Below are positions 31,601 through 53,604 of a stretch of 64,000 bases of DNA, piece after piece. The notes below the pieces were generated by a model. The model did not search any database. It saw only the letters and a list, made by a program, of their open reading frames with translations, and had not been told where the DNA came from. Each line of letters begins with the position of its first letter. The first letter of the stretch is position 1. Made by a program: the position numbers and the translations under genes. Source of the stretch: Psammoneis japonica (Eukaryota); assembly GCA_008632985.1 (NCBI GenBank), contig QPGO01000114.1:1-64000 (forward strand). The letters are read 5' to 3'.

Positions 31601-34090
31601 TGCAGGCAACGGAGCGGCAGCAAATGCCACAATGGCGACCAACCAAACTGGTGCGTAAACACAAATTGAAGCAAACAACAAAATCCAAAAAAGCAAAAAC
31701 AAAAAAACTTTCTGCAAAGCGGTTTGGATGCAAGAACGTGTGGCAGTTGGAAATTTGGATTTGAAAGCAACATGGCAAAGAGACAAAATGTAGGATGAGT
31801 TGGTGGACAATGAGGGTGGATCACAAGCAGCAACATTTGTGTCAAAAGAACAAGAAACCGCAAATGTCAATTGGGGCGCAGGCCACCATTGTGTGAAAAG
31901 ATTGATCATGCTTAAAAGTGGGAAGCGATTTGGGTTTTAGAAGCTCACAAACTTGTGCAGCTCTCATGTTGCATTTAAGGAGAGACTTGGCTCATGAGTT
32001 GACAACAATCTGGCATTGAAGTCAACAAACACCCAGATTGCAGCAGACAGTCAGAACCAGATTGTTGGCATCCCAGATGGTGCAATTTCTTGACACTCTT
32101 CCTTGAAAGCACCGGACAAATTGGGAACTTCAAAACCTCCTGTCAACATGTCAGCCACATTTGTCTGTTGTCTGTGCATCCCAACAGGAGAAGGAGGTGG
32201 TGGGAGGGAGTGTGTCTCTCCCCTGCCCTGACCCTGAACAGAGTGGAGAAAGATGGGTGAGACAAAGTCGGGGTGCCGCGGGTTTGGGGGTTTGGGGGGG
32301 GGGGGGCAACCACTTTCAAAATGACCAAATGTGCAAGCAGTCTTGCACACAAAACAGAGTGCAATCACTTTTGCATGGTTTGGGGATTCATGAAAATCAC
32401 TTTATTTGCTCGCACAAAACATTCCAAATTTTGCATTGCCTCGGTCATTTTTGGGTTGGGATGCCATTGACTCCTGGCCAATTGATTGGTCATTTTTCCA
32501 TTTTGAGGCTGTTGATGTAAAACATTTGAGTGCCAGTTGCTTTTGTCTTTCTTTGCGCCCTTGACAACATGTGCACGTGACAAAGCCCTTTTTTCCATTG
32601 AGATGATGGATGTGGTGATTTTGTGCTTTTTGTGTGCTCGCTTGCTTTCAAACCAGAGATCATGAGGCAGCACAAACAACTCATTCAACACCCTTGTTTC
32701 TGCACCTGACAAGGACAACCACATGATGCAAGCCTGGATTGTTGATGAATTGTTGGTCAAAAGTCATTGTCTGACAATTGCAGTCTTCAGCTGCAAATGC
32801 CTTGCACACAGTCATTTGCAGCACCAGAGGAGCCTGACAGCCTTCTTGGAACCCTCTCTTGGGATCAATTCAAACTGTGAGTTTTTGCAAAATGAGTTGC
32901 TCTGTGTCACATCAGACTGTGCACCTTTTGGGGCTCTGGCTTTGTTGTTCGCACCCCGGTGTTCGAACTCTGCATGCTTGTCATCGACAAACTTGCGCTG
33001 CATTGATTCAAAGCAATGGCGAGTGCGCGAGTGCACATTGGTGGTTTGCAAGCTGTGGCATCGCTGTGATCATGCACAGTCCTTCTTGTTGAGGGTGCGG
33101 TCTCTTCCACAAATTGCGCGGGGCCCTGCAGCAATGGACTGGGCTTCGAATGAACAAAGCAGCTCAACACATTGGGTTGATTGCTCAGGCGCTCAAAGAC
33201 ACGTGACCACAAAGCGCGAGGCAGCCCTGCAATGTTTGTTTTGCAGACTTGGATGCGACCAACTCGATGATGTTGTCTGTGTCATTGTCACACACACCTT
33301 TGCACCTTGCTTGCTGCTTGCACAGAAACAACCAAGCAAGAGAGTCAGTGAGCAGTGAGCATCCCAATTCCCAAATGCCGGTGGCAAGAGGAGGAGTCGT
33401 CGTCACGAGCAGCGTCCGACGTTGGCTTCGAAGCGACTGCGAATTGCAGCCAGCGGCAGCAATCATTGTACAGGTGTCTTGTGCATGTAGAAATTATGAT
33501 GCCGATGTGTTAAAAGATATTTCGTTTGGGTGCTTGTGCTTTTTCTGTTTCCATTTCGCGCGCATTTTCGCACTCTATCTCCAGCTAGGGCCCTGCCGGA
33601 GGCACGGCATGTGAACAGTGGCGAACTTTTTTTCAGGATCGCCTCACAGACCCCAAGACCCATATATCGGTGGAAAGCTCTCGACGAGCTGAACAAGGTC
33701 AAACGCATGTTGCATCGGTCGGAGTGAGCGGAAAGCGAATGTTTGTCGTTGAAAATTTGGTACTTATTTAAAGAAAAATAACGGTTATATTCGCCTTTTT
33801 GTAATTGATTTTTATATTTATATCCAAACATTAATCGTATCATAAATTTGACATTTAATCCGGAGTTCCGAAATCTCATGCAGGATTGTATACTATATAA
33901 ATTACTTATGGGACACCTTGTTTCTATACTTTGCTCTTGCTCTACAGCTCTTACAACTGAAGATATCGAAAAAAGGCTTTCGTCAGTTGCTGCAACTGGG
34001 TGTGTTTTAGTGACTGACGAAAGCCGATTTTCGATAAGTATTTTTGGTGTCGAGATTTTTCAATAGCAAAAATAACTTCGCCACTATTTA

Positions 34091-34452
34091 TGGGGACATC
34101 CCGAATAAATTTAGCCAGTGGCTAAAAACCTCCTGTAGAATTATACGCATTTCTCCTGGTATGCGATTTATTTAATGATAACGCCTTTTAACGCCACCCC
34201 ATTGTTTTCTTTTATATACATAAAATTATTTGTAGTTTTTTGTTTTTGTATTTATTTTTAGAGGCTTAAAAGCTAAAGGTTTTATATTAACGAACGTTAT
34301 AGTTAGCAGCAAACCGTTACAGATATGACATTTATAGGTTCAGTAAAGTGCATAGTAAATATTTTCTGTGTAGAAAATATACTAGCGTACAAACCTGGTA
34401 TGTGTCTACACAAGATTTTAGCCACTGGCTAAAATCATTCGGTATGTCCCCA
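34091..34452. mobile_element. AT-rich MITE (~362 bp), ~37-bp TIRs with an internal palindrome, flanked by TA; not TpA-depleted
   Basis: tggggacatcccgaataaatttagccagtggctaaaa (from 34091) vs reverse complement from 34452 tggggacataccgaatgattttagccagtggctaaaa. TA at 34089-90 and 34453-54. Confidence 0.8.
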
Positions 34453-35294
34453 TACATACCTCCGGTACTCGACGACTCCTCCTCACCTCTTGCCTGCCCA
34501 CCGTCACATTTTTTCTCACAAAAGCGAAAAGCGCCGCTGTCTCATCACTACAAGAAAACACGTTTGCAATTTGCAACATCATGTCGGAAGAAGAAATGTA
34601 AGTAAAGAAAAATGCTTCGGTGAATTTCTTCCTTGCATGACACCACTGCTGTCTGCCGGCTGCCTGCAGTCAATTCCATTGCTCCCCCCAAACGCGGCAT
34701 GCGGCGCGGCCTTGACGTGGTGGATCGAATCGTTTCTCCCAGTGTCATTCGATGCAAAACCGATTTTGTTTGCACAAACGAAATAATTTTTAGTTTCTAC
34801 TGGTTGAGATGACCTACAAAACGTGTTGGGTGGATTTTATGACAAGCCGGGTGTTTGATCAGGCAACGCGGGAACGCGTTGTGTTTGTTCGTCTTTCGCT
34901 TCTTGACCACGAGACTATTGTTCCAACATGCGTTGATCTACAGCATGTCCAACCAGTACGTTTCAATCGCTAAATAATATCGCAACGTTACCCTCTTGTA
35001 CGAGGAAACGCAGACGACGACTGCTCCATGGTACTGTACTTCTGCCTTTTCCAGCCATTGCGTCGTTGACCCCCACGTTTCTTGCATTTTCGAATTTTCA
35101 CGCCATCCATGACGTCATGTGTGTAGATTCTACGTCAGCTTGTACGGCGCACTTGTCTCGCGATCTTGCATTTTCAAAAGGATTCTGTGTGTCGCGCGGA
35201 GACCATATATCTTTTCGCAGTGTGTCACACACATCACTCTCTCTTTTATTCAATAAAATTAATTGGAAAACATACAACATACATGCACCTCACC

Positions 35295-36462
35295 ATGTTG
35301 TTGTTATCGGCTCTTCGTTCTTCCGCCAGCAAACGTCTTTACTCGACCGGAGCCATTGCCGAGTCTCTCAAGGGAATGGTCGGACGGAACTTTATTTCCA
35401 TTGATGAACTCAGGTATGTGAATTATTTTGTTCTTTGAAATCAGAACATACAGTATGATGAAAGAATTACGTGTTGCTGCCGCAGAATCTTACAGTATGA
35501 TTTGCTTGTGTGTCCATGATTTCCAACTACTACTACTTCTATATTGTAATAGCAACGACGAAATGCGTGGTTTGTTGGATTTGAGCAAACACTACAAGGC
35601 CACGTACGGCAAGGATTCGACGGTGGATCCGCAAACGGCACCTCGTCCGCTCTTGGGCAAGACGGTCAGCATGATTTTCCAAAAGCGCTCGACGCGTACT
35701 CGCGTGTCGACGGAAACGGGCATGTTTCACTTGGGAGGACACGCTCTCTTTTTGGGACCCTCCGACATTCAATTGGGTGTCAACGAAAGCATGAAGGATA
35801 CGTCGTTGGTATTGAGTCGATTTAATGACTTGATTTTGGCTCGTGTCTATGGACACAAGGACATTTTGGAATTGGCAGAGCATTCCACGGTTCCTGTCAT
35901 TAACGCATTGTCGGATTTGCATCATCCACTCCAAACTCTAGCGGACTATATGGCGTTGGAGCAACACTTTGGTTCCCTCCAAGGTAAAACCGTGGCATGG
36001 GTCGGTGATGGCAACAACGTTTTGCACGATTTGATGTTGGGAGCACCCAAGGTGGGCATGAATGTACACTACGCCACTCCCAAAGGATATGAACCCAACG
36101 AAACAATCGTTCAAAAGACTAAGGACCTTTTGGCCGAAAATGGTTGCAAGGAACTATTCGCCACCAACGATGCCTCCCTTGCCGTGACAGGTGCCGATGT
36201 CATTGTCACTGACACGTGGGTCAGCATGGGACAAGAAGAAGAGTATCAGAAGCGTCTTGCCGAATTTGACGGATACCAAGTCAACGCGGGCCTCATGGCC
36301 AAGGCCAATGATGGGGCCGTCTTTTTGCATTGTTTGCCCCGTCATCCGGAAGAAGTTTCCGATGAAGTGTTTTATTCGGATGCCTCCTTGATTTTCCCAG
36401 AAGCGGAGAACCGCAAATGGACAGTCATGGCTGTCATGGCGGCTCAACTTGGAAAGATATAA
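35295..36462 (+). CDS. OTC: Ornithine carbamoyltransferase, probably mitochondrial (urea cycle); exons 35295-35413 and 35553-36462, 342 aa
   Basis: KRSTRT carbamoyl-phosphate motif, HPLQ, WVGDGNNV, DTWVSMG, FLHCLP, EAENR. A GT...AG intron at 35414-35552 joins RNFISIDEL-S-NDEM in frame. N-terminus MLLLSALRSSASKRLYS resembles a mitochondrial presequence. Confidence 0.95.
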
Positions 36463-37068
36463 AAAAATACCGGAAACGAAAAATGAGCGTAGACGTAGTG
36501 GTGGGAGAAATTGTGTTTAATTAGATGGACGTGCATACCATTGCTACTCTGTTGTGTTGGAGTAATGATACGTACTGTAGTCGGTAGCATGGTGGTTATG
36601 GCTCATGTTGTTTCGTTTTTTCTGTCACCACATTGAACTATTCCATATTGATACATACGTTTTCGCCAAACGGCTCAAGCTCCTACCAACTCGGTTCTCT
36701 CAGGTACAGTACGCAACATTGACTCGGCGTTTGCACCACAGTAGTGCCTAGATACGTTCTTACCTTACATTTTTTTCATTTTTCAGGACGCAATCTTGAC
36801 TCGACGATATTTCTTTAGCGCGACAGACCTGGTGATATAAGAGAGATGCGTCGCACGTTTCCCAGTGCAACTCAGGCATTGATGAATCCGTCTGGTCCAG
36901 TTGATGCTTGGGGAACGGATTGTAGAGCCAACGATACCTCGCCTCCCTCTACTCTCTAGAGTACTTCTAGCTACTCGTAGTTAGTAGTCGTACAAAAATC
37001 CAAGGACGTCACTTTTCGCAAAGATGAAAAGAATATGAAAATGGTCTAAATTTTATTTTGAGTGAATC

Positions 37069-37941
37069 TTACGGAGCATAGTTTTCTCCTCGCTGTGGCT
37101 TGAGCTCCTCGACAGCAACTGTGAATGCGTTGACAATCGCCATTTGCAACTCTTCCATATCATGATGAAGAGAATCAAAGGGGAAAGCCGCTTGAAATTG
37201 CTCTTCGTTCCCGACAAAGCTCAGTAGCATATGAATCCCTGCAGGACCCACGGCCAATATTCTAGCCTTGTCTACATTGCGCTGCGACGCAAACGTGGCC
37301 AGAGCCTTTACATCGGAGGCATAGTCCTCTTGATCAAGAAGCTTCACCAGATCATTACAGGACTCGGCAATCGAGTAGTCCGGAACTACCCACCAGTTAG
37401 GCAGTGCGACTGGCTCGTTCAGGTGCAATTTGTCTTGAAGTACGTGTTCTAGATCCGTATCTGACTTCGCTTCTGCTGCTTGCTGATCAAGTAGCTGAAT
37501 GTTATCAATCACACACTCCTCCTCTACCTTGTCACACGGATGCGGGAACTGAAGCGGAACCATAAGTGTCACACAGCCATCGTCCTCGCACACGACTGCT
37601 TGAACATCCATGTGATTCGAGTCTATTCCGATAATCTCCACGTGCTCTACATCTTTTAGCTTGAGAGGAGACTCGGAAAAAGCAACAGCTAAGCGAGCCA
37701 ACTGAGACACGTAATCTCCGAACGAGTCCAACAAGGTCGGAGTAGAAGTGCCCAAGTACGAGTCGGAAAAGACTTCATGATGGGACGAAGAGGCAGCAGA
37801 CTCCTCTTCGGCGTATGGGGACCACAAAAACGCAGGTGCAGGAGCACGAAGTCTGCTCCCACTGATTGGAGAAAAGCACAGTACCTCTTTGAATCCATTT
37901 GCCAGCAGCAGGGTAAGCGCCGCTGTCCGTCGCCCCATCAT
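37069..37941 (-). CDS. Uncharacterised, probably plastid-targeted protein (DUF2470-like segments), ~290 aa
   Basis: Intact ORF with normal composition. MMGRRTAALTLLLANGFKEVLC-FSP resembles a signal peptide plus Phe at +1 (diatom ASAFAP-type). GIDSNHMDV...VPLQFPHPC resembles DUF2470. Confidence 0.7.
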   Translation of the reverse strand: MMGRRTAALTLLLANGFKEVLCFSPISGSRLRAPAPAFLWSPYAEEESAASSSHHEVFSDSYLGTSTPTLLDSFGDYVSQLARLAVAFSESPLKLKDVEHVEIIGIDSNHMDVQAVVCEDDGCVTLMVPLQFPHPCDKVEEECVIDNIQLLDQQAAEAKSDTDLEHVLQDKLHLNEPVALPNWWVVPDYSIAESCNDLVKLLDQEDYASDVKALATFASQRNVDKARILAVGPAGIHMLLSFVGNEEQFQAAFPFDSLHHDMEELQMAIVNAFTVAVEELKPQRGENYAP

Positions 37942-39399
37942 TTTCTCCTCCAACGTTTGATGCAAAAGTGCGCCTTTATCACAACCGAACTTATTTTTTC
38001 TGCCAATACAAATAACCTTACTTACGCTATGAACAGTTCCAGAATTTGCAGATTTCCAGATTGGATGGCAGTTGGCGCGAAAAACGAGACCAATCGTTAT
38101 GTATATCTTCATTAACTTATACAAATCAATGTTTCCTTCACTTGAAGTATGTCAAGGTTTCCGCCGACGTCAGCTTTCGTTTCTCATTTATTTCCGGGTC
38201 TGGGAACAAAACTTCGCTCCGACAGGTTGCCGTTGCTCATCCACCAACACGTGCGTTTGCCATGGCGCGGGCGACGACTTTGCGCTACTGTATTTCTTCT
38301 CGTCTGAGCCAACCCAATGAAGCGTAAGCAAATCATTTCATGAAGCGCAAGGTTAACTTTGAGTTGCAGCCGCAAGGATCAAGTGACAAGGCTTGATTGG
38401 CTCAAAGCAATGTAAGTCAGAGGGAACCACCAAGAAGTGGTCACCAAGTCGTACAACGAGAAGGCCCTCATTGGAGGATGTACTACCGAGACAGAAACAC
38501 AATGTCGCCTGCTAATGATACCTACTTTATAGGAGCTTGCAAGATGTCACGGTTGGCTTACGATCGTTCCTGAAGGTGGAACCTCAATTTCAAATGAAAA
38601 CAAGTCGGCATGCACTCCCACGAGACACGCAGCCACCTCTCTCTCTCTCTCTCTCTCGAACGAACGAACGAACATCCCTCGATGGATCGATCGCATTTCG
38701 CCCATTGGTGTGCGAGGACAGGATGCAATGACGACGACTCCATCAAGCACGTGTCATCTTCCAGCTCGTCCCACACACCCCTCATGCGAAACTTTGGTGC
38801 ATCATCCGCGGATCCTTTTGCCATTTCGCCACTGCAGTTCGGCGGATTTTTTCAACAGCTGACTCTTCAGTCATGATCCGTTTGCATGACAACGGACCAG
38901 CAGCAGTTGGGCAAACGCAGCAGTTGTTCCCGCCCGTGGAAAACAGTGCATCAAGCATGAAACAAGAAACGCAACACCAGTGCAAAATGTTTGCGGTCAA
39001 GAATTCAGAACAAGAGGCAGAATCCTCGGCTGAAGAAGAAGAAGACCAGGTCTTCAGATGAAGAGCTCTTTCAATTAAAGCACCCTCATCAAAAGAGCAA
39101 GACTGAGTCGACTCGAGCAATCCTGAAGCAGCAACAACGACACTCCTCCAACTCCATCAGGCATCCTTCTGGCTCCGACAACGATGAACTCATCTTTCTT
39201 CTGTTGCCCGCAGCAACAATGATGTGTCCGCTTTCCAGTTGAGATGACCACGCCACTGCGCAAAGGTCACTCAACGCAAGCAAGCTCCACCCATTGTGAG
39301 TCACAGTCCTTCCACACGTGCACACCACGCTCATGAAGCTGCGGCTGCTCGACACTGCAGCAGGAATCGGGTGAACACTGAAAGCATTGGTTGTTCAAT

Positions 39400-39520
39400 C
39401 CATCAACCCCACAATGGCGTCAAGGATTTCATCACGAGTTTTGTTGCTCTTGTTGCGCTCAAAGGGTGTCTTGCCCAAGACGAGTTCCAAGGTGAGCACG
39501 CCGAGCGACTGCAAATTCCT
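39400..39520 (-). pseudogene. Short protein-kinase fragment (subdomain IX-like)
   Basis: NLQSLGVLTLELVLGKTPFE resembles DlWslGvl.yEl..G..PF. Confidence 0.5.
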
Positions 39521-39929
39521 TGCAGCGAGCATTTGGAGACTTGTTGGTGGTGTTCGACATCGCATTCCAAGACGAGATGGAGGTGGGTCGAATCCTGAAA
39601 GCAACCACAACAATCCAGAATGAGCGGATGATTGAGACTGCATGTTCAATGCAGCAGCAGAAGAGGGGGGTGGGGGACACGACAGGAGTGAGGAAGAAGG
39701 CATTCTGCAACTACACTGCCCTCCACAATGGCTCCGGGACAAACACCAAGTTTCGTAGTTTCGTGACGACGGTGACGACGACACTCACCGACAATGAATT
39801 TCCATTTCCTGCATGGAATTGCGGGTCATTTATGAGCAGCTTTTGTTTGCAGAGTTGCTTGGTGGCAACCGCTTGGTGACGTTGGAGATCGTGCCGCAAG
39901 TGTGGACTTCCCCTTGCCATGGAAACTAA

Positions 39930-40470
39930 GCCGAGCAGGAATCAGAGGACCCCTTTTTCAGTCAAGCTGACTTCATCACACCCAAAGGATGCAATGATCA
40001 CTTGGGTGTGCTTGCCGTGTCTTGCTTTGGTTGTGAAGAACTAGCTGCAATGTACAAAGCCGAGAAAGACGATTGTTCCAAACTCATGTGTCAAACCGTT
40101 TTGTCGGAGTCTTTGCGGAGTGCTTGCACCGACAGATGCGTGTCGATTTGTGGGGTCATGCCAAGGACGAAAAGCTTGACGAGGTGGACTTGTTGAAGAT
40201 CACACACGACGGGATTGTCCTGCTCCAGGACACCAGTCACAACAGGATCACACGGAAAACACAACAATGTGGAACACGATTAAGGCGAAGGAGTTGGCGG
40301 GCATTGAATTGAGCGAATCTCTCAGCATGATGCAAGCAAGTCCTGTGTCGGCCTTAGCATTTGCCCACCCTGAATCTCAGTGCTTTGCGGTAGGACAGGT
40401 TTTGGCAAGGATCAAGTCGAAAGCCACTCAAAGAGGAAGGGTCTTGAGCTCGGCGTTACCGAAAGATGGC
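39930..40470 (+). pseudogene. METH: Fragment of cobalamin-dependent methionine synthase (C-terminal activation domain), frameshifted
   Basis: SQADFI...HLGVLAVSCFG...DDCSKLM; FAECLHRQMRVDLWGH; HDGI.PAPGHQSQQDHTE; GIELSESLSMMQASPVSAL.FAHPESQCFAVG; GKDQVESH. These correspond to MetH DDYS, LWGY, GIRPAPGYPSQPDHTEK, LTES.AM.PA..VS and YFAVG. Confidence 0.9.
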
Positions 40471-40499
40471 TGTCTCCAGCATTGAACTACCGGGTGCGA

Positions 40500-42417
40500 A
40501 CGTGCTACAGTAGACTGCGCAGAAAATAGACTTGTGAACACATTCTTTGAACTCTTCATCTGTTTGATGCTGTCCATCATGCTCGACTCAAGGAAACGCC
40601 AGAATGCATTTTCTAAAAATGCAAGCTGTGCGAATGTTGTGTTCGTGAATCCGACAAAGCATGAAAGCATGGCAGCCACCAATTTGGCGTTCATCTTCGG
40701 GAGCCAGAACAGTCTTCAAAGAACAATGGGAACACTCACAGACTTTCCTGCGTGCAATTTGCAACAGAGATTGGTTCCCTCAATGCACTCCTCTTGATTG
40801 ATGTCTTCGGTGTCACCATTGTCATGTTCAGCGTGATGCATGGGCGATCCAGGTGGCTTCGTTCTTCGTCATGCATTTGACGACACCATCACAAGAAACT
40901 TTTTTGAAGCACTTGGAAAATGGGACATTCGCCATGGGTTTCTCATCCGTGTCTTTGGCTGGCATCTTGACCACCGCCATTCTCGGAACCATCAGGAGCA
41001 GAGAGTGAAGTCTCCGTCTTCGCCGAGTCGGGTTTCTGAATCGGGTTTTTGGCTGGCATCTTGCCACCGCCATTTTTGGAAACGTCAGGGGCAGAGAGTA
41101 AAGTCTCCGTCTTCACCGAGTCGGATTTCTGAATCGGGTTTTTGGCTGGCATCTTGCCACCGCCATTCTCGGAACCGTCAGGAGTGGAGAGCAAAGTCTC
41201 CGTCTTCGCCGACTCGGGTCTCTGAATCGGGTTTTTGGCTGGCATCTTGCCACCGGAACCGTCAGGAGTGGAGAGCAAAGTCTCCGTCTTTGCCATGGGT
41301 TTCTCATCCGTGTCTTTGGCTGGCATCTTGCCACTGCCATTCTTGGAACCGTCAGGAGCAGAGAGCAAAGTCTCCGTCTTTGCCATGGGTTTCTCATCCG
41401 TGTCTTTGGCTGACATCTTGCCACCGCCATTCTCGGAACCGTCAGGAGTGGAGAGCAAAGTCTCCATCTTTGCCGAGTCGGGTTTCTGATTCGGGTCTTT
41501 GGCTGACATCTTGCCACCGCCATTCTCGGAACCGTCAGGAGCAGAGAGCAAAGTCTCTGTCTTCGCCATGGGTTTCTCATCCGTGTTTTTGGCTGGCATC
41601 TTGCCGCCACCATTCTCGGAACCGTCAGGAGCAGAGAGTGAAGTCTCCGTCTTTGCCATGGGTTTCTCATCTGTGCTTTTGGCTGACATCTTGCCACCGC
41701 CATTCTCGGAACCGTCAGGAGCAGAGAGCAAAGTCTCCGTCTTCGCCGAGTGGGTTTTTGATTCGGGTCTTTGGCTGACATCTTGCCACCACCATTCTTG
41801 GAACCGTCAGGAGCAGAGAGTGAAGTCTCCGTCTTCGCCATGGGTTTCTCATCCGTGTTTTTGGCTGACATCTTGCCACCGCCATTCTCGGAACCGTCAG
41901 GAGCAGAGAGCAAAGTCTCCATCTTCGCCGAGTCGGGTTTTTGATTTGGGTCTTTGGCTGGAGTCTCGCCACCGCTGTTCTCGGAACCGTCAGGAGTGGA
42001 GAGCAAAGTCTCCGTCTTTGCCATGGGTTTCTCATCCGTGTCTGTGGCAGGCATCTTGCCACCGCCATTCTCGGAACCGTCAGGAGCAGAGAGCAAAGTC
42101 TCCATCTTTGCCATGGGTTTCTCATCCGTGTCTTTGGCTGACATCTTGCCACTGCCATTCTCGGAACCGTCAGGAGTGGACAGCAAAGTCTCCGTCTTCG
42201 CCAAGTCGGGTTTCTGATTGGGGTCTTTGGCTGGAGTCTCGCCACCACCATTCTCGGGACCGTCAGGACTGGAGAGCAGTCCACACTCACTCGGGCTTGG
42301 AGGAGGAGAAGGAGAAGTCACCGTCTTCATCGAATCGTGAGTTCCATTCAGCGATGCTTCCGATGACGTGTCCTTCGCACGCTTTGATGCATCAGGGTTT
42401 CGATTTTCACTGCCCAA
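40500..42417 (-). pseudogene. Decayed gene with coding tandem repeats and a Tudor-like segment
   Basis: ORFs 41113-42417 and 40943-41731 (frameshift near 41755) encode ETLLSAPDGSENGGGKM repeats. Downstream FSKCFKKVSCDGVVK...EHDNGDTEDINQEE resembles K.F....y.G.V...YeDGD.Ed Tudor-like domains. Confidence 0.5.
40930..42282. repeat. Tandem array of 15 units of mostly 90/93 bp (two subtypes)
   Basis: ggaaccgtcagga core at ~40985, 41078, 41171, 41254, 41345, 41435, 41528, 41618, 41708, 41800, 41890, 41983, 42073, 42163 and 42256. Confidence 0.95.
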
Positions 42418-43295
42418 CGCAGGACCTTTCTTGGCTTCAGAGAGGCCCTGTCTGATGTGGCTGCCTCCATCCGGTCCATGCAGTGGAGAGAGGTGAAAAA
42501 AAGCAATGAACGAGTTAGGAAGATGATGCGGAAAGAAAAGGAGTGGAGATTGTTTGACTCACAATGGGATGAACGGACGATTTTTTGACATGATCTTCGG
42601 ATCCGGTCTGCATTGCATGGAGACGAGAATGCAAGCATTGAAAGAATGAGAAACATGACACAAAGAGAAAAGGAGTGGACGTGATTTTTGTTGAAAAGTC
42701 CGTCACTCACGATGGGATGGATTCACGAATTTCCGTCGAGACCGGCGCCTTGTTGTTTTCTTCGTGTGAAAGCTTCATTGCAGTGAGATGCAGTCTCTTG
42801 TGCAATGGGGTGCACAAAGATGTCGGAGGTTGGCAGCAACATCAACAGCAACAGAGACAAACAGACTTGTCAAAGTCATTCTCTTGAGATTGTGGCAAAA
42901 GTTCGTTGGTGATTTTGAAAAAGCAACTTGTTTTCGGCTAAATGAATCAACGAGTCTGGGTTGTGGTCGTGTTCTGTCTGCAACCAAATGGCGTTGAATC
43001 GTGACTGTCATGACCCAACAAGAGTTCTTGCAAATCACATGGGAAATGTTGCAAGACTGAAGCCTGTGCAATGGAAAGGAAAATTGTGACCTGCTTTTCG
43101 AGGAGTCGAGGCGCATTGCGTCAATCAGAGGTCCGCAACATGACTGGCTGAGACGACGTGTCGAAATGCTGCGAAGAGGGAACAATGAGGAAGAGCTCAA
43201 TCGGTTGGCAGTCGAGTTGATGGGCTTGTCACATGAATCCGGAGTCCCCTGCGCCAGAGTGCATGACTCCTCGAACTTCGTAAGACGAGTTTACA

Positions 43296-43470
43296 GTGAG
43301 TGGTCCCGACGATGTCCCCGCAGCTCACCCCGAAGTCATTGATCTCACGGGAACCGACAACAAAGTCATTGATCTCACCGAAGCCGACAACGAGGTTGCT
43401 GATCTCACCGAAAGCGATGACCAAGAGGATGAAAGAGAACAAGAAGCGACGGAAACCAGACAAATGACAT
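43296..43470 (+). pseudogene. Coding fragment with three tandem SUMO-interacting-like motifs
   Basis: VIDLT, VIDLT and VADLT at 30-bp spacing, followed by an acidic tract. Confidence 0.4.
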
Positions 43471-44949
43471 CAGTTCTCTCCACTGGAGTGTTTGTTGCAA
43501 TCTGTGCCAACTTTCATTGTGGACAGTTTTTGTTGTGTGGAGTGGCGGTTTTACATCCTTTTTGCCATGCGAAGTGGGCTCTCTTGTGCTCCAATGTCAT
43601 TGCGCATTCCGTGGCGTCTGGCAACAACTGTCAGGACCGGGGTTTTACACCGGTGTTGCAGCCGACCACCCGAGTCCAAAATTGGTTGACATGAGTGTTC
43701 ATCATTTGTCATTCCATCCGGATCTCTAGGGCCGCTGCCAGTTTGAATGCCTTGGCCGGGACACAAACATCTCTGTGGGATCTAGGCCATTGCAGAGAGA
43801 TCTGAGCAGCAGCCACAGCCAACATTGGCCATTGTAGATCATCAGCGATGAGGTTGAGAGTTCAAGTCATTGGAATCGGTGGCCACTCCATCCCCGTCGA
43901 TCCACATTGTCACCGTCGTGCTCAGTCATTTGATCCAGTGGGTCAATGGTCCACTCTTGGTCTGACTCAATGCTTTCACTGTCACGGACCGGATTGACAA
44001 ATTCACCTTCCTCTGTCCCTTTGCCTGATCTCCAACCTGCGCCACTCTCGTCAGACAAGGATCCGCCTTCAACCGGTGGACGACCTTTTTCTTTTCCACC
44101 AAAACTAAAAAAATGTTGCTTCCGTGAAATAAAAGTTCAATGAAAAGTGCTTGCGAGGACATCACTGTTGGACAAGGGGCATTCGATGCCTTCGTGGTGG
44201 TGATTCAAGACGCACCTTTTTTGTTTTCGACCAACGTGCTCCTGGGTTTTGCCCGTCTGCTGATGAGCGGTCGCTGCGGTGAAGTTGTCGAACCACCAGC
44301 AGCATTGCAACTGCCACGACAGACAAGACTGTCGCTGCAACATGCAGTGCCCAATCAATGTTGCCCTTTCCACCACCTTTGCTGCAGACCGGCGCTGTGA
44401 AGGAATCAATGTCTTTGGAAAGCTCTTGAATGTATGAGCCGTGCTGTTCTTTCAGGGACAGCTCAATCGCCATTTTTCAATGCGTTGAAAGCATCGATTG
44501 TTTCTCCCTGGACTCTGATCTTGACATGCAGAGCCGCTTGGGACAGGTGTCGGAACGACAAGTGCACAATGCCATCACTTTCACTGTCTGGCTCATGCAG
44601 AAACTGCGAAACGACAAGAACGTCGTGAATGACGTGTGCCTCCACCGGCAACTGCCGGTTCAAGACGGTCTTGGCAGCATGGTCAAAAGCTGCCTTGTCG
44701 GTTGAATCAGTCAGCTTTGTAAGAATGTCCGCAAAGAGGAGTGTCAAGTCGACAGATGCCTCATGAAATTCTGCAGAATTGGCTTTGGTTGGGCTGGGAA
44801 TGCTTTGCTTGGGATGGAGCGGGTGTCAAGGGGGCTGTTGAAATTGTTGTTTGGTGGGTGAAGACGGATGCAGGCTGGGTGCTGCAGATGGATTCGACAA
44901 ATGGCCTTCCTCACTGGCGCTTGGTGCTGAAGAAACAGTCTCAACTCCA

Positions 44950-45990
44950 GAAGGCGCGTTTGAAGAACCCGCAGTGTGCATGATGCTGACGGTTGGTTGA
45001 GGATTGGCAGATGGAAAAGCACTTGGTGAAAGCTCATCGTCGGAGAAGCACTGAATGATGGAAAACCACTGGGTGCCGGGCTGCTCGATGGAGCTTGTGT
45101 TGCGACATGGTTGCCTGCCCACAGCATCCATTTTGTCGACCCAATTGCGTTGGAGGGCGCCACACATGTGAGACACTGGCCATTGGCTTTGCTTTTTCTC
45201 CCAAAAACAGGTTCGTAACATCCAACAGGACAAGCAATGCCCTCACACCCACAGCGATTCGGTTCAAGCCCAATGATGCTGAGCACAGCACACAATGCCG
45301 GCAGAATTTCACCCACAAGACCAACGCCCAAGACTCGGAGAACTTCCAACGGAAATGCACCGAAGCATTGAGGAATCTCGCCATTGATGGATGTGTTTCC
45401 CGAAATGTCAAATGCAAGGAGCTTCGTTGGTTCAGGAATGAGAGAACGTCGGGAATTGAACCGGAGAAGTTGCTTGCTGCCGATTCCAGATGAGTTCTTG
45501 CTCCCAGGATGAGGTCGGAAGGATCCCTGAAAGCCTCTTGTTAGAAAGATCAATGCTGGTGATAAAACTGTTTGCATCACAGACAACACCTGTGAAATCA
45601 CAGCAATTGTCAATGGCGGGCCATTTGTGAAAGCTCTTAGACTGGTGGTGTCCCACATTGTTGGAGTCATCAAGGGCATTTGGGGCCTCAATTTGGTCGA
45701 GTTCCTCGGGAGTCCAGGTTGCAGTCGTCGTGGGTGCCAGAAGACTCTGTGCTGCACTCGGCATCAGAGCTTGCGGGAGTGGCAGTGGCTCGCACACATC
45801 ACCTTCGCAGCAGACTGCTGAAAGCAAGCCGGCCTCAACCTCAGTCAAATTGGCATCAACCAAGGGGTCAGCAGGCGGTGCAATTGGGGCATGTTCCGAA
45901 AATGTGCCATGCCAACATCCAGTGGGATCATCCATCCATTCTGTTGTCTGTGGCTTCGCGAAGCGCAGATCCGCCTTTTCCATGTCTCAA
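44950..45990 (-). pseudogene. Decayed leucine-rich-repeat receptor-like gene
   Basis: CDFTGVVCDANSFITSIDLSNKRLSGILP; FDISGNTSINGEIP; GLVGEILPALC; GCEGIACPVGCY. Frameshifted. Confidence 0.7.
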
Positions 45991-46986
45991 GAGAATTCCC
46001 ATGACTTTGATTGCACCAGGCCTGCCGAGTGTCAGGGCATTTCAGCTTGAATGCATTCAGTCTGGTGCTTCTAATCCGGGTCTGACTACAAGCACTTCCA
46101 CCATGTTGAGCGTGCGCGTTGGAGGGAGTTTTTCCAAATCAAACTGTCGCAGAAGTCTACGTCTTTTTCGCACTGTGCTGACCAGTCGAATCATCATTCA
46201 GCAATTGCAGCAAACCACCAAAATGGCATGGGTTCAATCGCTGAGAGCCTGTTGACTGCTGCATCGTTCTTCCACCTGAGTGAACGAGGCGCAGATGTCA
46301 TCAGTGAAGTCCGTGCGGGTGCTGCTTCCTTTCTGATGCTGAGCTGTCGGCTCTGTTGCTGGCACACCTGCGGATTGTGGCTGAAGCTGGTGTTGATCAC
46401 GATGACGCAGTCTTTTGCTGTGGCACTTTCGGCTGGAGCCGCTTGTTTTACTTTTGGATTTTTAGGAACCTCCCCTTTGCCTTTGTGCTCCGGGAATTGG
46501 TCTCAGCGCTTTTCTAACTTGTGGACTGGTCCAAACCAATGACTTCACACTTGAACAGGCACATGATCAATTTGGCAGTGGTCGGGAATTCTCCTTGCGA
46601 CAACTGCTCTTGTGGGCATCACTGATGAAAATTTGTCCCAGAAGCGATCAAGCACGCAAGCGTTGTTGACTTGATTGGCGTTGCAGCAATGCCTCGAACG
46701 ATTCTAGCCGTGTGCAGCATGAAATCGAAGATGACAGCGTTGGCGATGAGGAACTTTGTGACTGTGACGGCCACAACGATGTCTGGGCCATGCCGAACAA
46801 GGACGGCAAGTCGAGCAAAGATGACAACAGGGTGAGTGAGTCAGCTGCTGTGACTGTCAGACACGACAAAGAGAGCAACACAAATGCTCAGGAAATCAAG
46901 AGAAAAGAGCTCAAGCTGGGCTTCGATCATTCCCCAAAGCCGGATGATGTGACCCCGGACTCTCCTGCTGCCCGTTTTGCTGCTTT

Positions 46987-47634
46987 GGTTGGCACTCCAT
47001 GGGGCCAGTGACGCATTGACATTAGATCGGGAAATTGCATTGAAAAGCATCAAGTGGGATTGGCAATCACTCAAGTCTTCCCCAGATCAATTCAAGTGTC
47101 AAACAGGACAAATTCAGGTTTGTGGATGACTCCTGGAAGACGAATCGACTCATTGTGCTAGAAGCAGTGAAATGGCATTGGAAATTTGCTTCACAGCGCT
47201 TCGCATCCAGTGAGGGCTGACCACGAGATTGTCTTGGAGGCAGTCAAATTGAACAGGATGCATTTGGCGTGCGCCTCAACAGAACTTTGGGCCAGTGCTG
47301 ACATTGTTGTGGAAGGGGTCCGTCAAAATGTGAAAGCTTTTGAGTTTGCTGCGGAGCATCTGAGAGGCAGCCGAGATGTTGTTTTGTCTTCTGTCAAGCA
47401 TGTCCTCGGTCCAGCTTGCCTTGACCCTCATGTGCTTGCCTCCACCATGCGGACGTCCAAACACTTCACACTTCCCAAAGAAACCGAAAGACTGATTTCG
47501 ACTGTCACTGCTGGCATCTGGTGGCAGCATCATGATCGAGATGGGGTTGGAGCCTTCACTTTCTGCTGTGCAGCCAAAGCAGACAAAGAAACCGCTGCAC
47601 AAAACTGCATGGAACGAGTGTGGAAGCATGACCT
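46987..47634 (+). pseudogene. Hypermutated partial copy of the DUF4116-repeat gene (homologous to 62192-62885)
   Basis: Direct nucleotide alignment, e.g. tgagggctgaccacgagattgtcttggaggcagtcaaattgaac is identical in both. Two internal deletions. Confidence 0.95.
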
Positions 47635-47635
47635 T

Positions 47636-47937
47636 GGGAAGCCATCTCATTGCCAAAGCAGGGAGGGACTCGAACATGCAGCACATGCACAACAAACACT
47701 TTGGTGAAGGAAGAAATGGCACAGCACATTTTGGATGAAAATCCTTTCATGAATCTTTTTCTTGTCAAGTCTGGTGTGTGCCCACCTGGACTTCAAAGGG
47801 CAGGACTCGATGGTGTTGAAAGAACAATGGTGCGGAGGTTTGAGTCCAAGTGATGAGGCAGCAGACCCCATGGAATTTTTCATTGCTTTTCATCACCAAG
47901 TTCCGCAAGACCTGGCTTCCTTGCCTTGACAATGCTT
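47636..47937 (+). pseudogene. Hypermutated C-terminal fragment of an NSUN/Nop2-family RNA m5C methyltransferase (homologous to 52632-52892)
   Basis: GGTRTCSTCTTN..EE vs EGTLTYSTCTIN..ENEE; aligns at nucleotide level to the 52.6-kb copy. Confidence 0.85.
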
Positions 47938-48005
47938 CAGTTTTTATGCCAAACAAGAACTGGCACATTGTGCTGCTGGAAGATGTCAACCTGCACAATT
48001 CTTCC

Positions 48006-49350
48006 ATGGAGCATTCGGTGGTGACTCGGTCTCAGTGGACCCATCGCAACGCACTCATGGCTGGAATCATTGTGGTGGTTTTGTGTGTCATCATCATCAC
48101 CATTGCTGTCTTGGTTCCGGGTGGTTCTTTGAATGGCAACAGAGCCGCGCTCACAGACAATGGTGTGCTCAAGGTGGAGCTGATCAATGCGCATGATCAC
48201 TCCGATTTTCACTCACTTGACAAGAATCAACTCGATGTGAAGGATTCTCCGCAGAACAAGGCGTTTGAATGGCTTCGCTGGCATCCCAAGCACAATTCGT
48301 TGACGCACGCGAAAAAGTTGCAACTGTTTGCTCTGGCTGCTTTTTGCTGCTCGACGAACGGTGTCAAAATGGCACACAGCAAAGATGGGCCCTCCTGGAA
48401 GAATGCTCGTGATTGGCTCTTGTGCAATGAAACCAAGTGCATTTGGCCAGGATTGTTGTGCAACGACGAGGAAGAAATTGCCAAGATTTCTCTACAAGAC
48501 AATGACTTGATGAGACGATTTCCACCCGAAATGATTTGGTTGACTGAGTTGAAGTGCATCGATGTCACCACCAACAAGTTGTGTTTGGAAGGACCCAACG
48601 CACTCAATGTGCTGGGTGTTTTCAAAAACTTGCATGCCCTTCAAGCCGATGACAACTGCATTGTCACCAATGGTGGTTTGCCTGAGAGTTTGGGAAACTT
48701 GGTTGAGCTAAAAAAGTTAGTCTCATCATGCAACCTCATGTCGGGACCACTCAACAATGGCGTTCTGGAAAACTTGGGCAAACTGACGCACTCGGAAATC
48801 GAGTCCAACTTTTTGACGGGAGCCTTTCCGGCCATGATGGGAGAGTGGGACAATTTGGGTGAGTTTTTTGTTTTTGGTTTCTGTTGAAATTGCCATGGGT
48901 TTCATGCTGAACAAGAGCCAATGCATTGCACCGTTCTACTCTCACCACAGTTTGTCTCTGCATGAGGCAAAACGCCCTCACCATGGATTTGAGTTGGTTA
49001 AAAACGCATGAGATGGGGAATCTCTTTGCACTTTGGTTGGGTTCCAGCAATGTCAAAGGAGGAATTCCCACCAAAATTGGACAATTGACGGAATTGGCAT
49101 CCCCTTTGCTTGCCCATGTGGGTTTGGGTGGGGTGTTGCTGTCCAAGATTGGCAATTTGACGGGTTTGCGGCATTTCTGGATTTACACCAATGGCATTGG
49201 CAGAACCGTTCCCAAGGAAATTGGGATTTGAAGCAATTGGAGAATTTTGAAACCCATGACAATGCATTTTGACAAAAAAAATCGCTCACTGCGGATTGCA
49301 AAGAGGCGACGTGTCCCACGGACACGTGCTGCACAGAGTGTTGGCAAACT
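48006..49350 (+). pseudogene. Decayed diatom-type transmembrane LRR protein gene
   Basis: TM helix, SPQNKAFEWL, LQLFALAAFCCSTNG..W (from ALA.fYYsTnG), C.WPGLLC, LRRs (LPESLGNLVELKKL, IPTKIGQLTEL). Probable intron near 48860-48950; later stops. Confidence 0.75.
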
Positions 49351-49859
49351 GCTGCAGTGGTGGAGTCGGAGCTGCGCAATGTTGTTTTAGAAGAAGGATG
49401 CACAATGCTTGCAAATCATCTTGCTTTCAGAAATGCACTCAAACTGACAATGAAGAGAGCGCATGGTTCTGCACCCTTTTGCAGTCAGACTGCGGCACTT
49501 GCAATCTGCTCCCAGTGCACCACCAGCTTCACATGTGCTGCTCCACAAAGTGGGCGAAGTGATGTGTGCTGCCCAGTGCGACACCCCAGCCAGAGAGCTG
49601 CAGCAACTGTCATTGCATGCTGATCAAGCCCTTGCATTGGAAGAGTTGGCACAAAAACCCCACAGCAGTCTTTTTGTTGTGCTTGAGCACTGCAGCACTT
49701 TCTCTCTGACAGATTTGCTCAAGGCTTCTCTTGGGGAGCTGAGACTTGATCTCAAGCTGTGATGCAATCCAGAGAGTGGCATGCTCCTGAGCTGCTTCTT
49801 GCTCTTTCCTCCTTTCATGCAAGGCTTGTCTGGCACAGCTTTGCCCCCCAGTCACTTCA

Positions 49860-51200
49860 TCCCCATGCCAGGAGATGAGAGTTGAAGCTCCCAACTCCAG
49901 AGTGAAGGGACACCATGATGCCACCAATCAACACAACAAATGCAGGCTGAGGGCATTTTGGCTCTCTGATGGGGCCAAGGGAGCACTTTGAGAATGGTGG
50001 CTGCATGTTCCACAACTTGTGTGGTGCAGTTGTGGCTCCCACAGTTGCTTCATCTACATGTCAGAGTGAGAGCTGACACAAGGCTCCCAACTTGAGAGTG
50101 AAAGAGAACACCCTGACACCAACAACCAACAGAGCAGCTTCAGGTTGAGGGCACTGCAGGTTGCTGGTGAAATCCAGGGAACAATTTGAGGGTGGTGTGT
50201 TGCAAGGCTTGTCTGATGCAGTTTGGCTCCCAGCCACTTTTTCCCCATGCCAGGATGAGAGTTGAGGTCCCAGCTCCAGAGTGAAAGGACACCAGGGAAC
50301 ACTTTGAGGGCAGTGACTGAGTGTTGCAAGGCTCATCTGGTGTGCAGTTTGGCTCCCAGTCTTTTTTCCATGCCAGCATGAGAGTTGAGGTCCCAGCTCC
50401 TGAGCAAAAGGACACAGTTGTGTCACCATCCAACACAACAATTGCAGGCTGAGGGCATCAAAGGTCCATGGGGTGGAGCCCAGGGAGCACTTTGAGAAGA
50501 ATGGTGTTTGAGTGTTGCAAGGCTCATCTGGCACACTTGTGGTCCCCAGCCACTGGATCCACACCAGAATGAGAGCTGAAATTCCCATCTCTGGGATGAA
50601 AGGACACCCTGGGATGTGACCAACCAACACAAGCTGGGGGCACTGCAAGGGTCTCTTGTGAAGCCAGAGGCACACTTTGAGTTTTGTGGTTGAGAGTTTC
50701 AAAGTCCATCTGGTGCAGCTGCAGCCCCAGTCTCTTCATCCACACCAGCAGAATGAGGAGAGCTTGAGTTCTCACCAACTCCAGAGTGAAAGAACACCTT
50801 GATGCTGCCAGCCAACACAACAAATGCAGACAGAGGACATTGAGGATGTCTGGTGGAGCACAGAGAAGAACACTTTGAGAACAGCAGCCAAGTGTTGCAA
50901 GGCTCATCTGGAACAGCTGTTGCTCCCAGTTGCTTCATCCCCACCAGAATGAGAGCTGAAAAAGCTCCCAACTCTGGAGTGCGAAAATGCCCTGGTGCCA
51001 CCAACCAACACAAAAACTGCAGGCTGAGGGCATTGAGGGTCTCTGGCAAAGCCCAGGGAACACTTTGAGAATGCTTGCTGAGTGTTGCAAAACTCCAATG
51101 GATGAGTGATCCAAAAGGCTCCTCCTTCCAGTGCAGGTGTGCCCCCAACAGGCGCTTCATGCACACCAGGATGAGACTTGGAGCTCCCGCAACAACCTCC
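49860..51200. repeat. Degenerate tandem array, ~190-bp unit, ~8 copies; one inverted copy at ~56270-56420
   Basis: Recurrent tgagag(t/c)tga...ccagagtgaa...caacacaa...gctgagggca...cactttgag...gtgttgcaaggctcatctgg. The segment ccagatgagccttgcaacactcaa at ~56287 is its reverse complement. Confidence 0.85.
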
Positions 51201-52594
51201 AGATTTAAATGGCAGCCCAATTTCGCTGCCTCAGACACCAACTTTGTGCAGCTCCAGCTCATCAAAATTCTTGTGGAGCTTGATTTAAGGTCATTGAGCA
51301 GCATGGGAGGAGGGGGGGGTGTCTCAGTGTGGTCAACCACTTTGAGCATGGACTCAGAGGTTGGTCTGTTGCTTGAGAGCAAGGCTGCACTGCCTTTTGG
51401 ACCCAGACTTTGCACAGCCCCAGCATCAGAAGCCATGGCTTGGAGCCAAGCTTGCACAGCTTGGGGGAGGGTTGCACTGCCTTTTGGACCCAGACTTTGC
51501 ACAGCATCAAAAGCCATGCTTCCTGGGGGGGGAGTTGAGGACACAAAAGCAGTCTGGCCCACTTTTTGATCTGGTCTTGTTGAAAGTTGAATGCAGCCAA
51601 TTTGAGCCCAGGTGCACATGAAAAAAGCATGGGTGTGTCTTTTGAAACACATGGCAACATTGTTGGGGGACAGAGATCCAGCATCAAAGAGAGAGTGCAA
51701 GAAAGACACATCCAAACAGACTCAGGCTGGTGGTCTCCTTGCCAAGTGCAAGGGTGAGCAGCCTCACTGCAGCCAGAGCATTGAGAGAGCAAACAACAGC
51801 AAAAGAGCTCTCAACTGACACAAGGAGCTCCGGCTTCATCTCAAAAAGATCCAAGACAAAGTCAACAGCTGCAGCCAAAAGCCACGTGTGACACCTTGCA
51901 CTCATGTCAAGGTGCAGGATGAGGAGCAAAGGTGCAGCGGGCAGATTGCATCTGCCTGTCTTGATGCGATTTCATTTCAAGAAATTCTCTTTCCGAGCTG
52001 ACCAAGACTGATGGAGGGCAGACGCATCCCCTGAGAAAGCTCCAAAAAATGAAAATGGTGGGGAGACCGCTGAATAACGGGACAAAAGAGACCGAGACAA
52101 CGGAAAAGGCCAACCCTGCTGACCGACACTTGAACCTGTGTGTGCTGCACAGCTTCCCTTGGCTGCTGCTCATGCCATTTTATTCCCAGTTCTTGAGCCA
52201 GCCAACCGCATCCGCGTCAGCGTTTGGTTTCATGATGTTGTGTCACCCAAAACGATGTTGGGTGGACGCGACTGTCGTGCTGTGAGACGTCTTCGGATAT
52301 TTTTGTTTAGGCTATTGTGAGTTACACAAATTGGTGGATAAATACAGGTCATAAGTACTACAAAAAATCATTTGCTGCCGTCAATAGAAATCATGTAACT
52401 CGGCTACCTACTGTGAGTGTTGGGAGGTTGGGCATAAACGAGGAATGACTGTGGCAATAGTCAATACTCTTGATCCGTTGCTAGGTATGTGCTCTATTCC
52501 TCGAAGTGGGATTGTCGTAGACAAGAGTATGATGTATGTATTCTTGTTGAAACGACTCTCGACTCTCGACAAACTGTTCTTACTGGCTACTCGT

Positions 52595-52892
52595 TTTTCT
52601 AAGCATTCAAACTACCAAAGGCGTTTTGTTAGGGAAGCCGTCTCATTGCTAAAGCAGGAAGGGACTCTAACATACAGCACATGCACAATAAACACTTTGG
52701 AGAACGAAGAAATGGCACGGCACATTTTGGATGAATATCCTTTTATGAATCTTTTCCTAATCGAGTCTGGCGTGTGCCTACCCGGACTTCAAAGGGCAGG
52801 ACGACTCGACGGTGTTGAAAGAACAATGGTGCGATGGGATTTGTCGTCGCCAAGTTCCACATGACCTGACTTCCTTGCCTTGACAATGCTTC
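52595..52892 (+). pseudogene. Unmutated C-terminal fragment of an NSUN/Nop2-family RNA methyltransferase
   Basis: YQRRFVREAVSLLKQEGTLTYSTCTINTLENEEM (motif VI, YSTC). No N-terminal part; internal deletion relative to the 47.6-kb copy. Confidence 0.8.
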
Positions 52893-53604
52893 GCGTCGAG
52901 AGGCTTCTTCGGATACTATCTTTTAAGTGCACAAGCGACATGAAGCCGCACTGCCAAGGAAAAGTCTGTTTACATGTTTCTCTACCTAGGAGAAGAAGTG
53001 ATTTCGGTGCGACTTATGATCTGCAACAAGCCAATAAGAACGACGTGGGAGGGAGAGACTCAAAATCGTCGAGAGACTAGGCCTAGCGTTTTGTTGGGCG
53101 GCTTCAATTACTGCTTTTAAGAGAATGTGTTCGTATGCCGTTCTTTGACATTTCGATATGGCTGATATTGTAAAGATGGTGCCTTGTTTGTTGTAAAGGT
53201 GCAAGAGACAGGCCTATCTAAGCCCTCTCCACCAGAGAGTGAAGATCCTCATTCGCCCGAAGTTAGAGTCATTGGATGCGGTTTGTAGAAGGTCTATAAA
53301 AGAGGCGTGAATCCGCATGCGAGCATGGAGTGTAGGTAAACGTTACAAATTCTCTTGCACTCTCTCTGTACTGCCTCTAGAGGGAGATGTACTCTCTTGA
53401 TAGTGTTAGCAGTAGGGAGTAGCAAGCGAGTCTTCTGGTTCCAGTGTAGTGCTGCTGGGTTCCGTCCCGGGGCTGCAGATAGAATAGATAGAATAGAATA
53501 GAAGTAACTCTACGCACGAGCACCATAGCAAGATAGAGAGCAGGCGGGTTTGGCGCCACGACCATAAACGAAAAGTGCAGGATTTCTTCAGGTGCTAAGT
53601 ACAG

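Follow-up and report, generated by a model that had tools for sequence, protein, structure and literature searches.

Across 41 of the 64 kb of the window, by which we mean the whole stretch of diatom DNA that was analyzed (64,000 nucleotides), the dinucleotide TpA is depleted to an observed/expected ratio (O/E) of 0.02–0.07, and a dead fragment of the METH gene lying in this DNA has lost most of its TpA sites to TG and CA. At a probability of roughly 0.6, we attribute this loss to a DNA adenine deaminase that is targeted to chromatin domains, with the METH fragment as a bystander. The fragment itself is the following.

39928..40605, plus strand: METH pseudogene fragment of G000:C59 origin, comprising the C-terminal AdoMet activation domain and some 110 bp of flanking DNA on its 3' side.

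The alignment to the 3' end of the parent METH on G000:C59 (86% identity over 695 columns), together with PF02965 (activation domain) matches above the cut-off in three frames, bears out the initial annotation of this locus as a MetH fragment. METH homology begins at 39928, the upstream domains are absent, and no intact functional frame was found. The fragment is frameshifted by a 10-bp deletion after 40094, a 1-bp deletion after 40216, two additional bases at 40400-40401 and a 4-bp indel after 40492, and is therefore a pseudogene; it is functionless, and its worth is that of a polarized witness with built-in controls. A PF02965 search of the same genome gave 13 matches, of which the one on C59 is the sole stop-free, full-length one; fragments elsewhere lie on C116 (two places), C81 (two), C205, C22, C47 and C55. 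Against methionine synthases in the PDB, the C59 exon scores E 1e-65; of 2807 homologues, the best 120 share 78–87% identity with it, and one of these is labelled Thalassiosira oceanica. The 5' part of the parent consists of about three tandem 2.26-kb units (G000:C59:132312-138975; L028 2312-8975), which are 94–96% identical, have long open frames and represent either a genuine amplification within the gene or a feature of the assembly. A TA- and CG-poor domain starts about 250–300 bases 3' of the intact METH stop (G000:C59:128728-129900; L008 1-1200), and this essential gene thus sits directly at a domain edge on C59.

The signature was first visible in the protein. The initial annotation had listed six conserved tyrosines of the activation domain as turned to Cys or His, and all six changes were found, with Tyr in the parent at each position.

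40074 TAT>TGT, 40157 TAT>CAT and 40205 TAC>CAC, plus strand: first three of these Tyr changes, from the parent alignment.
40231 TAC>CAC, 40381 TAC>TGC and 40425 TAC>CAC, plus strand: remaining three, from the parent alignment.
39990..40427, plus strand: eight TA-hit Tyr codons, now Cys (39990, 40074, 40121, 40381) or His (40157, 40205, 40231, 40425).

The one Tyr that had been reported to survive is indeed retained, at 40053; a second lies at 40488, just beyond the annotated range, and further changes were Tyr>Cys at 39990 and 40121 and Tyr>Phe at 39954. The 11 Tyr codons of the parent have become four Cys, four His, one Phe and two Tyr in the window. Counted by codon class, an amino-acid change is seen at 9 of the 11 Tyr codons, compared with 22 of the 167 codons that have no internal TA (Fisher p=2e-6), and replacement by Cys or His occurs at 8 of 11 Tyr codons in the window against 0 of 22 in two other METH copies on C81, C81a and C81b (p=1e-5). 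Among the best 120 of 2807 homologues, Tyr occupies 40157, 40205, 40231, 40381 and 40425 in 120 of 120, and 40074 in 101 of 120, with Phe in the remainder. The parent does not carry the Cys/His residues of the fragment; since parent, two control copies and 120 homologues retain Tyr, the direction TAY>TGY/CAY had been read correctly. The annotation had fixed that direction by a deeply conserved outgroup, a procedure that gave the right outcome here, although a distant outgroup alone can mislead, and the in-genome parent is therefore the proper reference; residue 24 of the parent is His where two aligned PDB chains have Tyr. The emphasis on tyrosine also held in part. The loss of Tyr is real, but the target is TpA, and Tyr is merely its visible readout, because TA across codon boundaries and in non-coding DNA has been lost too; a protein-level or Tyr-specific cause was rejected on the same grounds. 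Tyr codons are worst affected, partly because RTAY contexts are lost fastest.

TpA loss is organized in domains whose edges are sharp within a few hundred bases.

38561..52070, no strand assigned: TpA-depleted domain holding the METH fragment, with 54 TA in 13.5 kb (O/E 0.066) against O/E values of 0.68 and 0.75 in the flanks.

Two other TA-poor domains occupy 8920-33460 (TpA O/E 0.049) and 53601-56549 (0.015), and the islands between and around the domains have a TpA O/E of 0.56–0.75. CpG loss is deeper in these two domains (CpG O/E 0.42 and 0.14, respectively), which are presumably older. At 10000-32000, 58 of the 66 remaining TA stand in a TAA/TTA context. The TA-normal islands, 33461-38560 and 52071-53600, hold an ornithine carbamoyltransferase-type gene (35422-36462), a DUF2470 gene (37069-38151) and an RsmB/NSUN-type methyltransferase piece (52388-52864). 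A terminal-inverted-repeat element was considered as the nature of the domain and rejected, as no such repeats were found at the ends among the 25 longest of 73 inverted pairs. The following pieces were recognized within the domain besides METH.

38707..39878, no strand assigned: two host-gene scraps with TA-normal sources on C216 (67–85% identical) and on C146/C104 (68–97% identical); by eye, we take the source ORF on C146/C104 to resemble a protein kinase.
40928..42278, minus strand: tandem repeat of about 90–93-bp units within a gene, compared with its C81 copy.
43907..45941, minus strand: gene-family fragment, LRR-like by eye, with TA-normal copies on C84, C421 and C66.
46987..47634, plus strand: DUF4116 gene copy with a TA-richer source at window 62192-62885.
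47974..49269, plus strand: LRR-type gene copy with its source at C116:98371-99664; 30 of 36 source TA are now TG or CA.

The domain is thus a mosaic of METH, the repeat-bearing gene, two LRR-type genes, the DUF4116 gene and others. Origin tracing covered the domain from 38561 to 49300; for every traced scrap, a TA-richer source was located in this genome, and most of the source TA has been lost from the scrap; in the fragment at 43907..45941, 46 of 61 source TA have become TG or CA and 4 are kept. A foreign or viral origin of the target was not found: the victim is a host METH copy, and the neighboring scraps trace back to TA-normal host loci. A mobile element may have carried these host-gene scraps. 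At its end, the C81 copy of the repeat-bearing gene resembles a PTM/DIR17-like Tudor domain, but the match is weak and falls short of the Pfam cut-off.

Copies of the METH sequence inside and outside TA-poor DNA were compared using the following two alignments.

38858..47254, plus strand: segment with a second copy, duplicated at G000:C116:113825-121665 (C116b), 75 kb away and 89–92% identical.
39930..43904, plus strand: block polarized by a largely unmutated sister, G000:C81:91241-94426 (C81b), which served as outgroup with 97 TA sites.

Inside TA-poor domains, TG or CA has replaced parental TA at 15 of 27 sites in the window and at 8 of 10 in the C22 copy, and C116b has lost 23 of 26 in this way and kept none; in TA-normal DNA, the corresponding figures are 1 of 27 (C81a), 1 of 28 (C81b) and 0 of 7 (C205). 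The window differs from the pooled controls at p=4e-8. Ordinary pseudogene decay was rejected as a cause, given that C81a and C81b carry stops and frameshifts, yet keep their TA. These two copies are 88–93% identical to the parent, and C81b, a dead 2-kb METH copy, holds the METH piece together with the next 3.3 kb of the window, largely unmutated. It is partly affected, with 21–30 TA per kb at C81:92-94 kb and a few sites at which TG stands against CA.

The spared copies bear directly on a homology-sensing defence of the RIP type with reversed polarity, in which paired duplicates would be recognized and mutated. The domain is built of duplicated gene scraps, a chromodomain-linked C5 methyltransferase locus is present in the genome, and diatom DNMT4 enzymes may group with RID, according to the accessible part of PMC9998398; however, TA is kept at 71 of 80 sites in C81b and 86 of 99 in C81a, the tandem 2.2-kb units of the parent share TA at 160 of the 188 positions where either has one, and single-copy DNA at the domain edge (see below) is mutated as well. 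This explanation is largely refuted and appears very improbable to us. Neither repetition nor pseudogene status can be enough for mutation, since METH copies outside the domains are spared, and targeting therefore follows location. That only in-domain copies are mutated speaks in favor of targeting guided by chromatin, and against a mechanism that recognizes foreign DNA or homology; the mutator seems to follow chromosomal position rather than foreign origin or repetition. The locus amounts to a natural experiment, in which the same host sequence exists in several dead copies and has been mutated only in certain domains. The contrast holds within single duplicated segments too: the collinear duplicates on C22 and C55 diverge by 3.3% (158 of 4845 positions) in their TA-poor part and by 0.4% (7 of 1601) in the TA-normal flank (p=9e-13). 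Three collinear 7–9-kb copies, 92–97% identical, were seen in all (G000:C22:115664-125000, C47:260001-267742 and C55:5003-14139); each includes 212 bp of METH within a domain poor in TA and CG, and they vary mostly by CG versus CA/TG.

The duplicate and the outgroup made it possible to polarize individual changes. At the 97 outgroup TA sites, the window copy has 35 TG, 40 CA, 19 kept and 3 other outcomes, all three of the latter (3/97) being common to C116b, which has 35 TG, 52 CA, 3 CG, 3 kept and 4 other. Both strands are affected alike, the TG:CA ratio being 35:40 in the window (p=0.64) and 35:52 in C116b (p=0.09). The direction agrees between the two copies at 52 of 70 sites (p=6e-5), and 18 sites were resolved oppositely; some hits therefore predate the duplication, and many came after it. 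If chance agreements are taken to equal disagreements, we infer that about 56 sites were open at the duplication, of which about 66% have since been lost in the window and about 95% in C116b. One new TA was gained in the window copy over about 3000 columns. Loss in the window copy was highest in RTAY (26 of 27) and lowest in YTAR (5 of 13); the effect of the 3' base is significant in this copy (p=0.005) and not in the near-saturated C116b (p=0.22), and a test of direction at mixed sites was not significant (26:18 and 28:23).

Private changes since the duplication were counted with both neighbors fixed and with the tandem-repeat zone 40921-42280 excluded. C>T at CpG occurred at 20 of 192 and 16 of 187 sites (36/379 together), A>G outside TpA at 8 of 931 and 14 of 937 (22/1868 together), C>T outside CpG at 1 of 699 and 2 of 702, and transversions at 2 of 1827 and 3 of 1846. 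Relative to non-CpG C>T, A>G outside TpA is raised (22/1868 against 3/1401; p=0.002). Seeming A>G and C>T changes at CpA in a first count were rejected as mostly CA/TG double differences. As rough estimates, the post-duplication rate is 0.5–1.5 per A at TpA, 0.009–0.015 for other A>G, and 0.001–0.003 for non-CpG C>T or transversions; TpA thus mutates, again roughly, 60–100 times faster than other A, 5–16 times faster than CpG and 400–500 times faster than other C.

This spectrum can be set against error-prone repair, in which T:G mismatches from deaminated 5mC in methylated domains would be re-synthesized by a Y-family polymerase of the pol eta type that misreads A:T at WA. Pol eta also yields many transversions, and these were not raised in our counts. 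It would explain why CpG decay and TA loss coincide in the same domains, and WA is described as a known non-AID hotspot of somatic hypermutation in the accessible part of PMC6423074. Nevertheless, AA is not favored (9/647 against 13/1221 for CA and GA; p=0.51), TA stands 60–100-fold above other A, and TA loss exceeds the triggering CpG events by about 5–16 times, so that we consider such repair quite unlikely.

A further rival is ADAR-type RNA editing followed by reverse transcription and reinsertion. The 5' U preference of ADAR, given in the accessible part of the Bigelowiella natans preprint (10.64898/2026.01.13.699255), and a second PF02137 gene besides the ADAT1-like one would suit this idea; against it, both directions are equally frequent within one copy, mutation continued after the DNA duplication (the 18 opposite-direction sites), and the alignment of the C81b precursor to the genomic parent runs without a break for 2 kb. 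In addition, the 68- and 87-bp gaps relative to the LRR-like source correspond to coding sequence that lacks GT-AG ends, not to introns, and on this basis retroposition was rejected for that piece as well. The RNA route, which we give next to no credence, is refuted; the action of an ADAR fold on DNA in R-loops belongs to the deaminase reading.

Evidence of recent activity came from the domain edge.

38413..38530, no strand assigned: single-copy DNA just outside the edge, where an X1 contig has six further TA>CA/TG changes.

The region 38059-38625 has one match in the assembly. The X1 contig over it shows nine differences, and among the eight listed, six are TA>CA/TG and two are not at TA. Of the 10 TA closest to the edge, 6 are changed, against 0 of the 12 farther out (p=0.003), and X1 contigs over the flank 37500-38088 show no difference. 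This evidence consists of one contig from the public run X1, which is possibly the assembly's own source, and it suggests that the contig is an allele whose domain edge has moved by about 150 bases and that the process is recent. Activity without a second copy was thus found, in single-copy edge DNA of one run. Among the listed X1/X2 differences, 37 distinct positions were checked; 25 of them carry the C116b, C81 or parent letter and were set aside as possible cross-mapping. The pair 39658-39659 (CA>TG) in X1/X2 contigs matches no compared copy; it may represent an allele or else a mosaic within the contig.

The runs also speak to a base-calling or assembly artefact at modified bases. Miscalls on two strands could give symmetric TG/CA, and X1 may have been the very source of the assembly; yet word-based X1 contigs reproduce the window letters where C116b differs (0 differences over 39005-39216 and 1 over 39880-40046, with C116b differing at 4–5 sites in each), and the 52 of 70 shared directions fit inheritance rather than random miscalls. 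An artefact is scarcely credible.

Returning to the domain-targeted deaminase, we see the following course. The comparisons show that the 3' piece of METH was copied as DNA, first to a place beside the repeat-bearing gene (the state on C81) and then into a junk domain on C116, which was later duplicated. They also show that, within such domains, A:T in 5'-TA-3' changes to G:C on either strand, almost only by transitions, with RTAY hit most readily and YTAR least; a site is normally hit once, because a hit on one strand destroys TA on both. Indirectly, they show that CpG decays in the same domains about 5–16 times more slowly and that homologues outside are largely spared. The targeting cue may, most simply, be a silenced, CpG-methylated chromatin state; CpG decay in the domains and, by analogy, the DNMT5 methylation of transposons in P. 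tricornutum point to such a state, and the edge of silenced chromatin could creep into adjoining unique DNA. A TadA/ADAT- or ADAR-fold enzyme recruited there would convert adenine to hypoxanthine in DNA, to be read as G at replication. Raised A>G outside TpA would be expected, because an A-directed enzyme with a strong 5'-T preference should leak. As TA is palindromic, A>G and T>C chemistry are inseparable from sequence alone. The outcome would be irreversible inactivation of any sequence in the domain, with Tyr and many Leu, Val and Ile codons changed and TAA/TAG stops erased.

Searches with PF00383, PF14437, PF02137 and PF00145 returned an ordinary-looking deaminase set, without a telling fusion or a standout mutator; in the exons scanned, the deaminases showed no expansion and no chromatin-reader domain. 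The genome encodes dCMP deaminase-like, TadA-like, ADAT2-like and RibD-like genes and two PF02137 genes, where labels finer than the Pfam family are presumptive and were assigned by eye. The ADAT2-like gene lies on C26 and the ADAT1-like PF02137 gene on C40. The second (editase) gene, at G000:C79:344171-345900 (L044, L068), directly adjoins a TA-poor domain, and in the Atlas the C79 exon matched only A_deamin clusters. A further frame on G000:C79 (L037 313-1785, minus strand) joins a deaminase domain with DIOX_N and a 2OG-Fe(II) oxygenase and probably serves nucleobase metabolism. C5 methyltransferase-like (PF00145) matches numbered 27 (L076-L089), on C43, C10, C59, C78, C27, C301, C297, C34, C1 and C109. 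The C34 locus (L084) has a weak chromodomain match upstream of its DNA_methylase domain, and three related copies (L081-L083) themselves lie within TA-poor DNA.

This enlarged set of C5 methyltransferase-like genes lends plausibility to an unusual base modification, and with it to the explanation that a modified base at TpA in silenced chromatin is itself the lesion, either a G-pairing thymine modification or N6-methyladenine that is then deaminated. Mutation would in that case be a by-product of a silencing mark, and strand symmetry, sharp edges and the edge shift would fit equally well. A strict TpA mark would not, however, be expected to raise A>G outside TpA, and we regard this explanation as unlikely, if still deserving attention.

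Taking the deaminase reading further, we put forward tentatively, at somewhat less than even odds, that a natural DNA adenine base editor guided by heterochromatin operates in diatoms; this deaminase, drawn to chromatin domains that are silenced and spread, would drive TA to TG/CA near saturation, be active now, and act irrespective of foreign origin or homology. If true, it would be shared with the rhizarian B. natans and form a second, A-directed mutational defence of eukaryotes beside RIP and APOBEC. Diatoms make the question testable, since gene knockout is standard practice in their model species, and a DNA adenine deaminase from nature would be important to base editing. In such domains, runs of Tyr>Cys/His and erased TAA/TAG stops produce false open frames and bias the molecular dating of diatom repeats.

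Established mutational genome defences, namely RIP and AID/APOBEC, act on cytosine. RIP, which depends on RID/DNMT4 and on the sexual cycle, strikes both homologous copies. It resembles the process described here in being a context-specific transition hypermutation on both strands that permanently kills repeats and pseudogenes; unlike it, RIP changes C>T, mostly CpA>TpA, and so creates TpA, whereas here TpA is destroyed, and homologous copies outside the domains are spared, while RIP of ascomycetes is triggered by homology, as stated in the accessible part of the B. natans preprint (10.64898/2026.01.13.699255). Among the off-targets of ABE8e, a TadA-derived base editor, 94% are A>G/T>C, preferentially at TA, according to the accessible part of PMC13225742, and the present spectrum is compatible with such changes, although ABE8e is an engineered enzyme for which that part describes no regional targeting. 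Diatom DNMT5 provides CpG methylation of transposons in P. tricornutum (Hoguin et al., PMC9998398, accessible part), an established silencing mark that might delimit the domains and underlie their CpG>TpG/CpA decay; as far as that part goes, it accounts for C>T only, not for TpA loss. The mutation bias of P. tricornutum is the ordinary GC>AT (PMC6604790, accessible part), and the accessible part of the Prasinoderma paper (PMC11884799) has no bearing on TpA hypermutation. Our literature search found no diatom report of TpA hypermutation and, for TpA hypermutation in general, the B. natans preprint only, most subscription papers being outside its reach.

That preprint on a rhizarian alga, in its accessible part, is the one direct report so far of an adenine-directed DNA defence, and it mentions diatoms 0 times. 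It describes TpA hypermutation of integrated NCLDV and virophage DNA (Mettrop et al., 10.64898/2026.01.13.699255), with the signature measured directly in mutation-accumulation lines (230 of 231 changes A/T>G/C, all at TpA), between which the activity switches on and off, in a region described as silent; TpA-poor genes of likely host origin are noted too, and an ADAT2-type deaminase is proposed, unproven. Judged by what is accessible of it, the likeness is close. Both systems show TpA>TpG/CpA transitions on both strands (here 75 of 97 sites, 35:40), confinement to regions at hundreds of times over background (here an O/E of 0.066 against 0.68 and 0.75) and an ability to affect single-copy DNA. 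On the same footing, the present case differs in that the host is a diatom, the affected DNA consists of host-gene scraps, a housekeeping gene among them, and O/E falls to 0.02–0.07 against 0.45 in the B. natans NCLDV region. A neighbor-base bias and an apparent edge shift are seen here, and TpA is not the exclusive target, as shown by 36/379 CpG C>T and 22/1868 non-TpA A>G changes, which may reflect a longer time span than that of a mutation-accumulation experiment. Beyond the B. natans system, this locus contributes a polarity set by the parent gene, controls for location and the moved edge. Together, our results are evidence for the same chemistry signature as in B. natans, with a new lineage, near saturation, host-derived victims and a location-based, spreading targeting.
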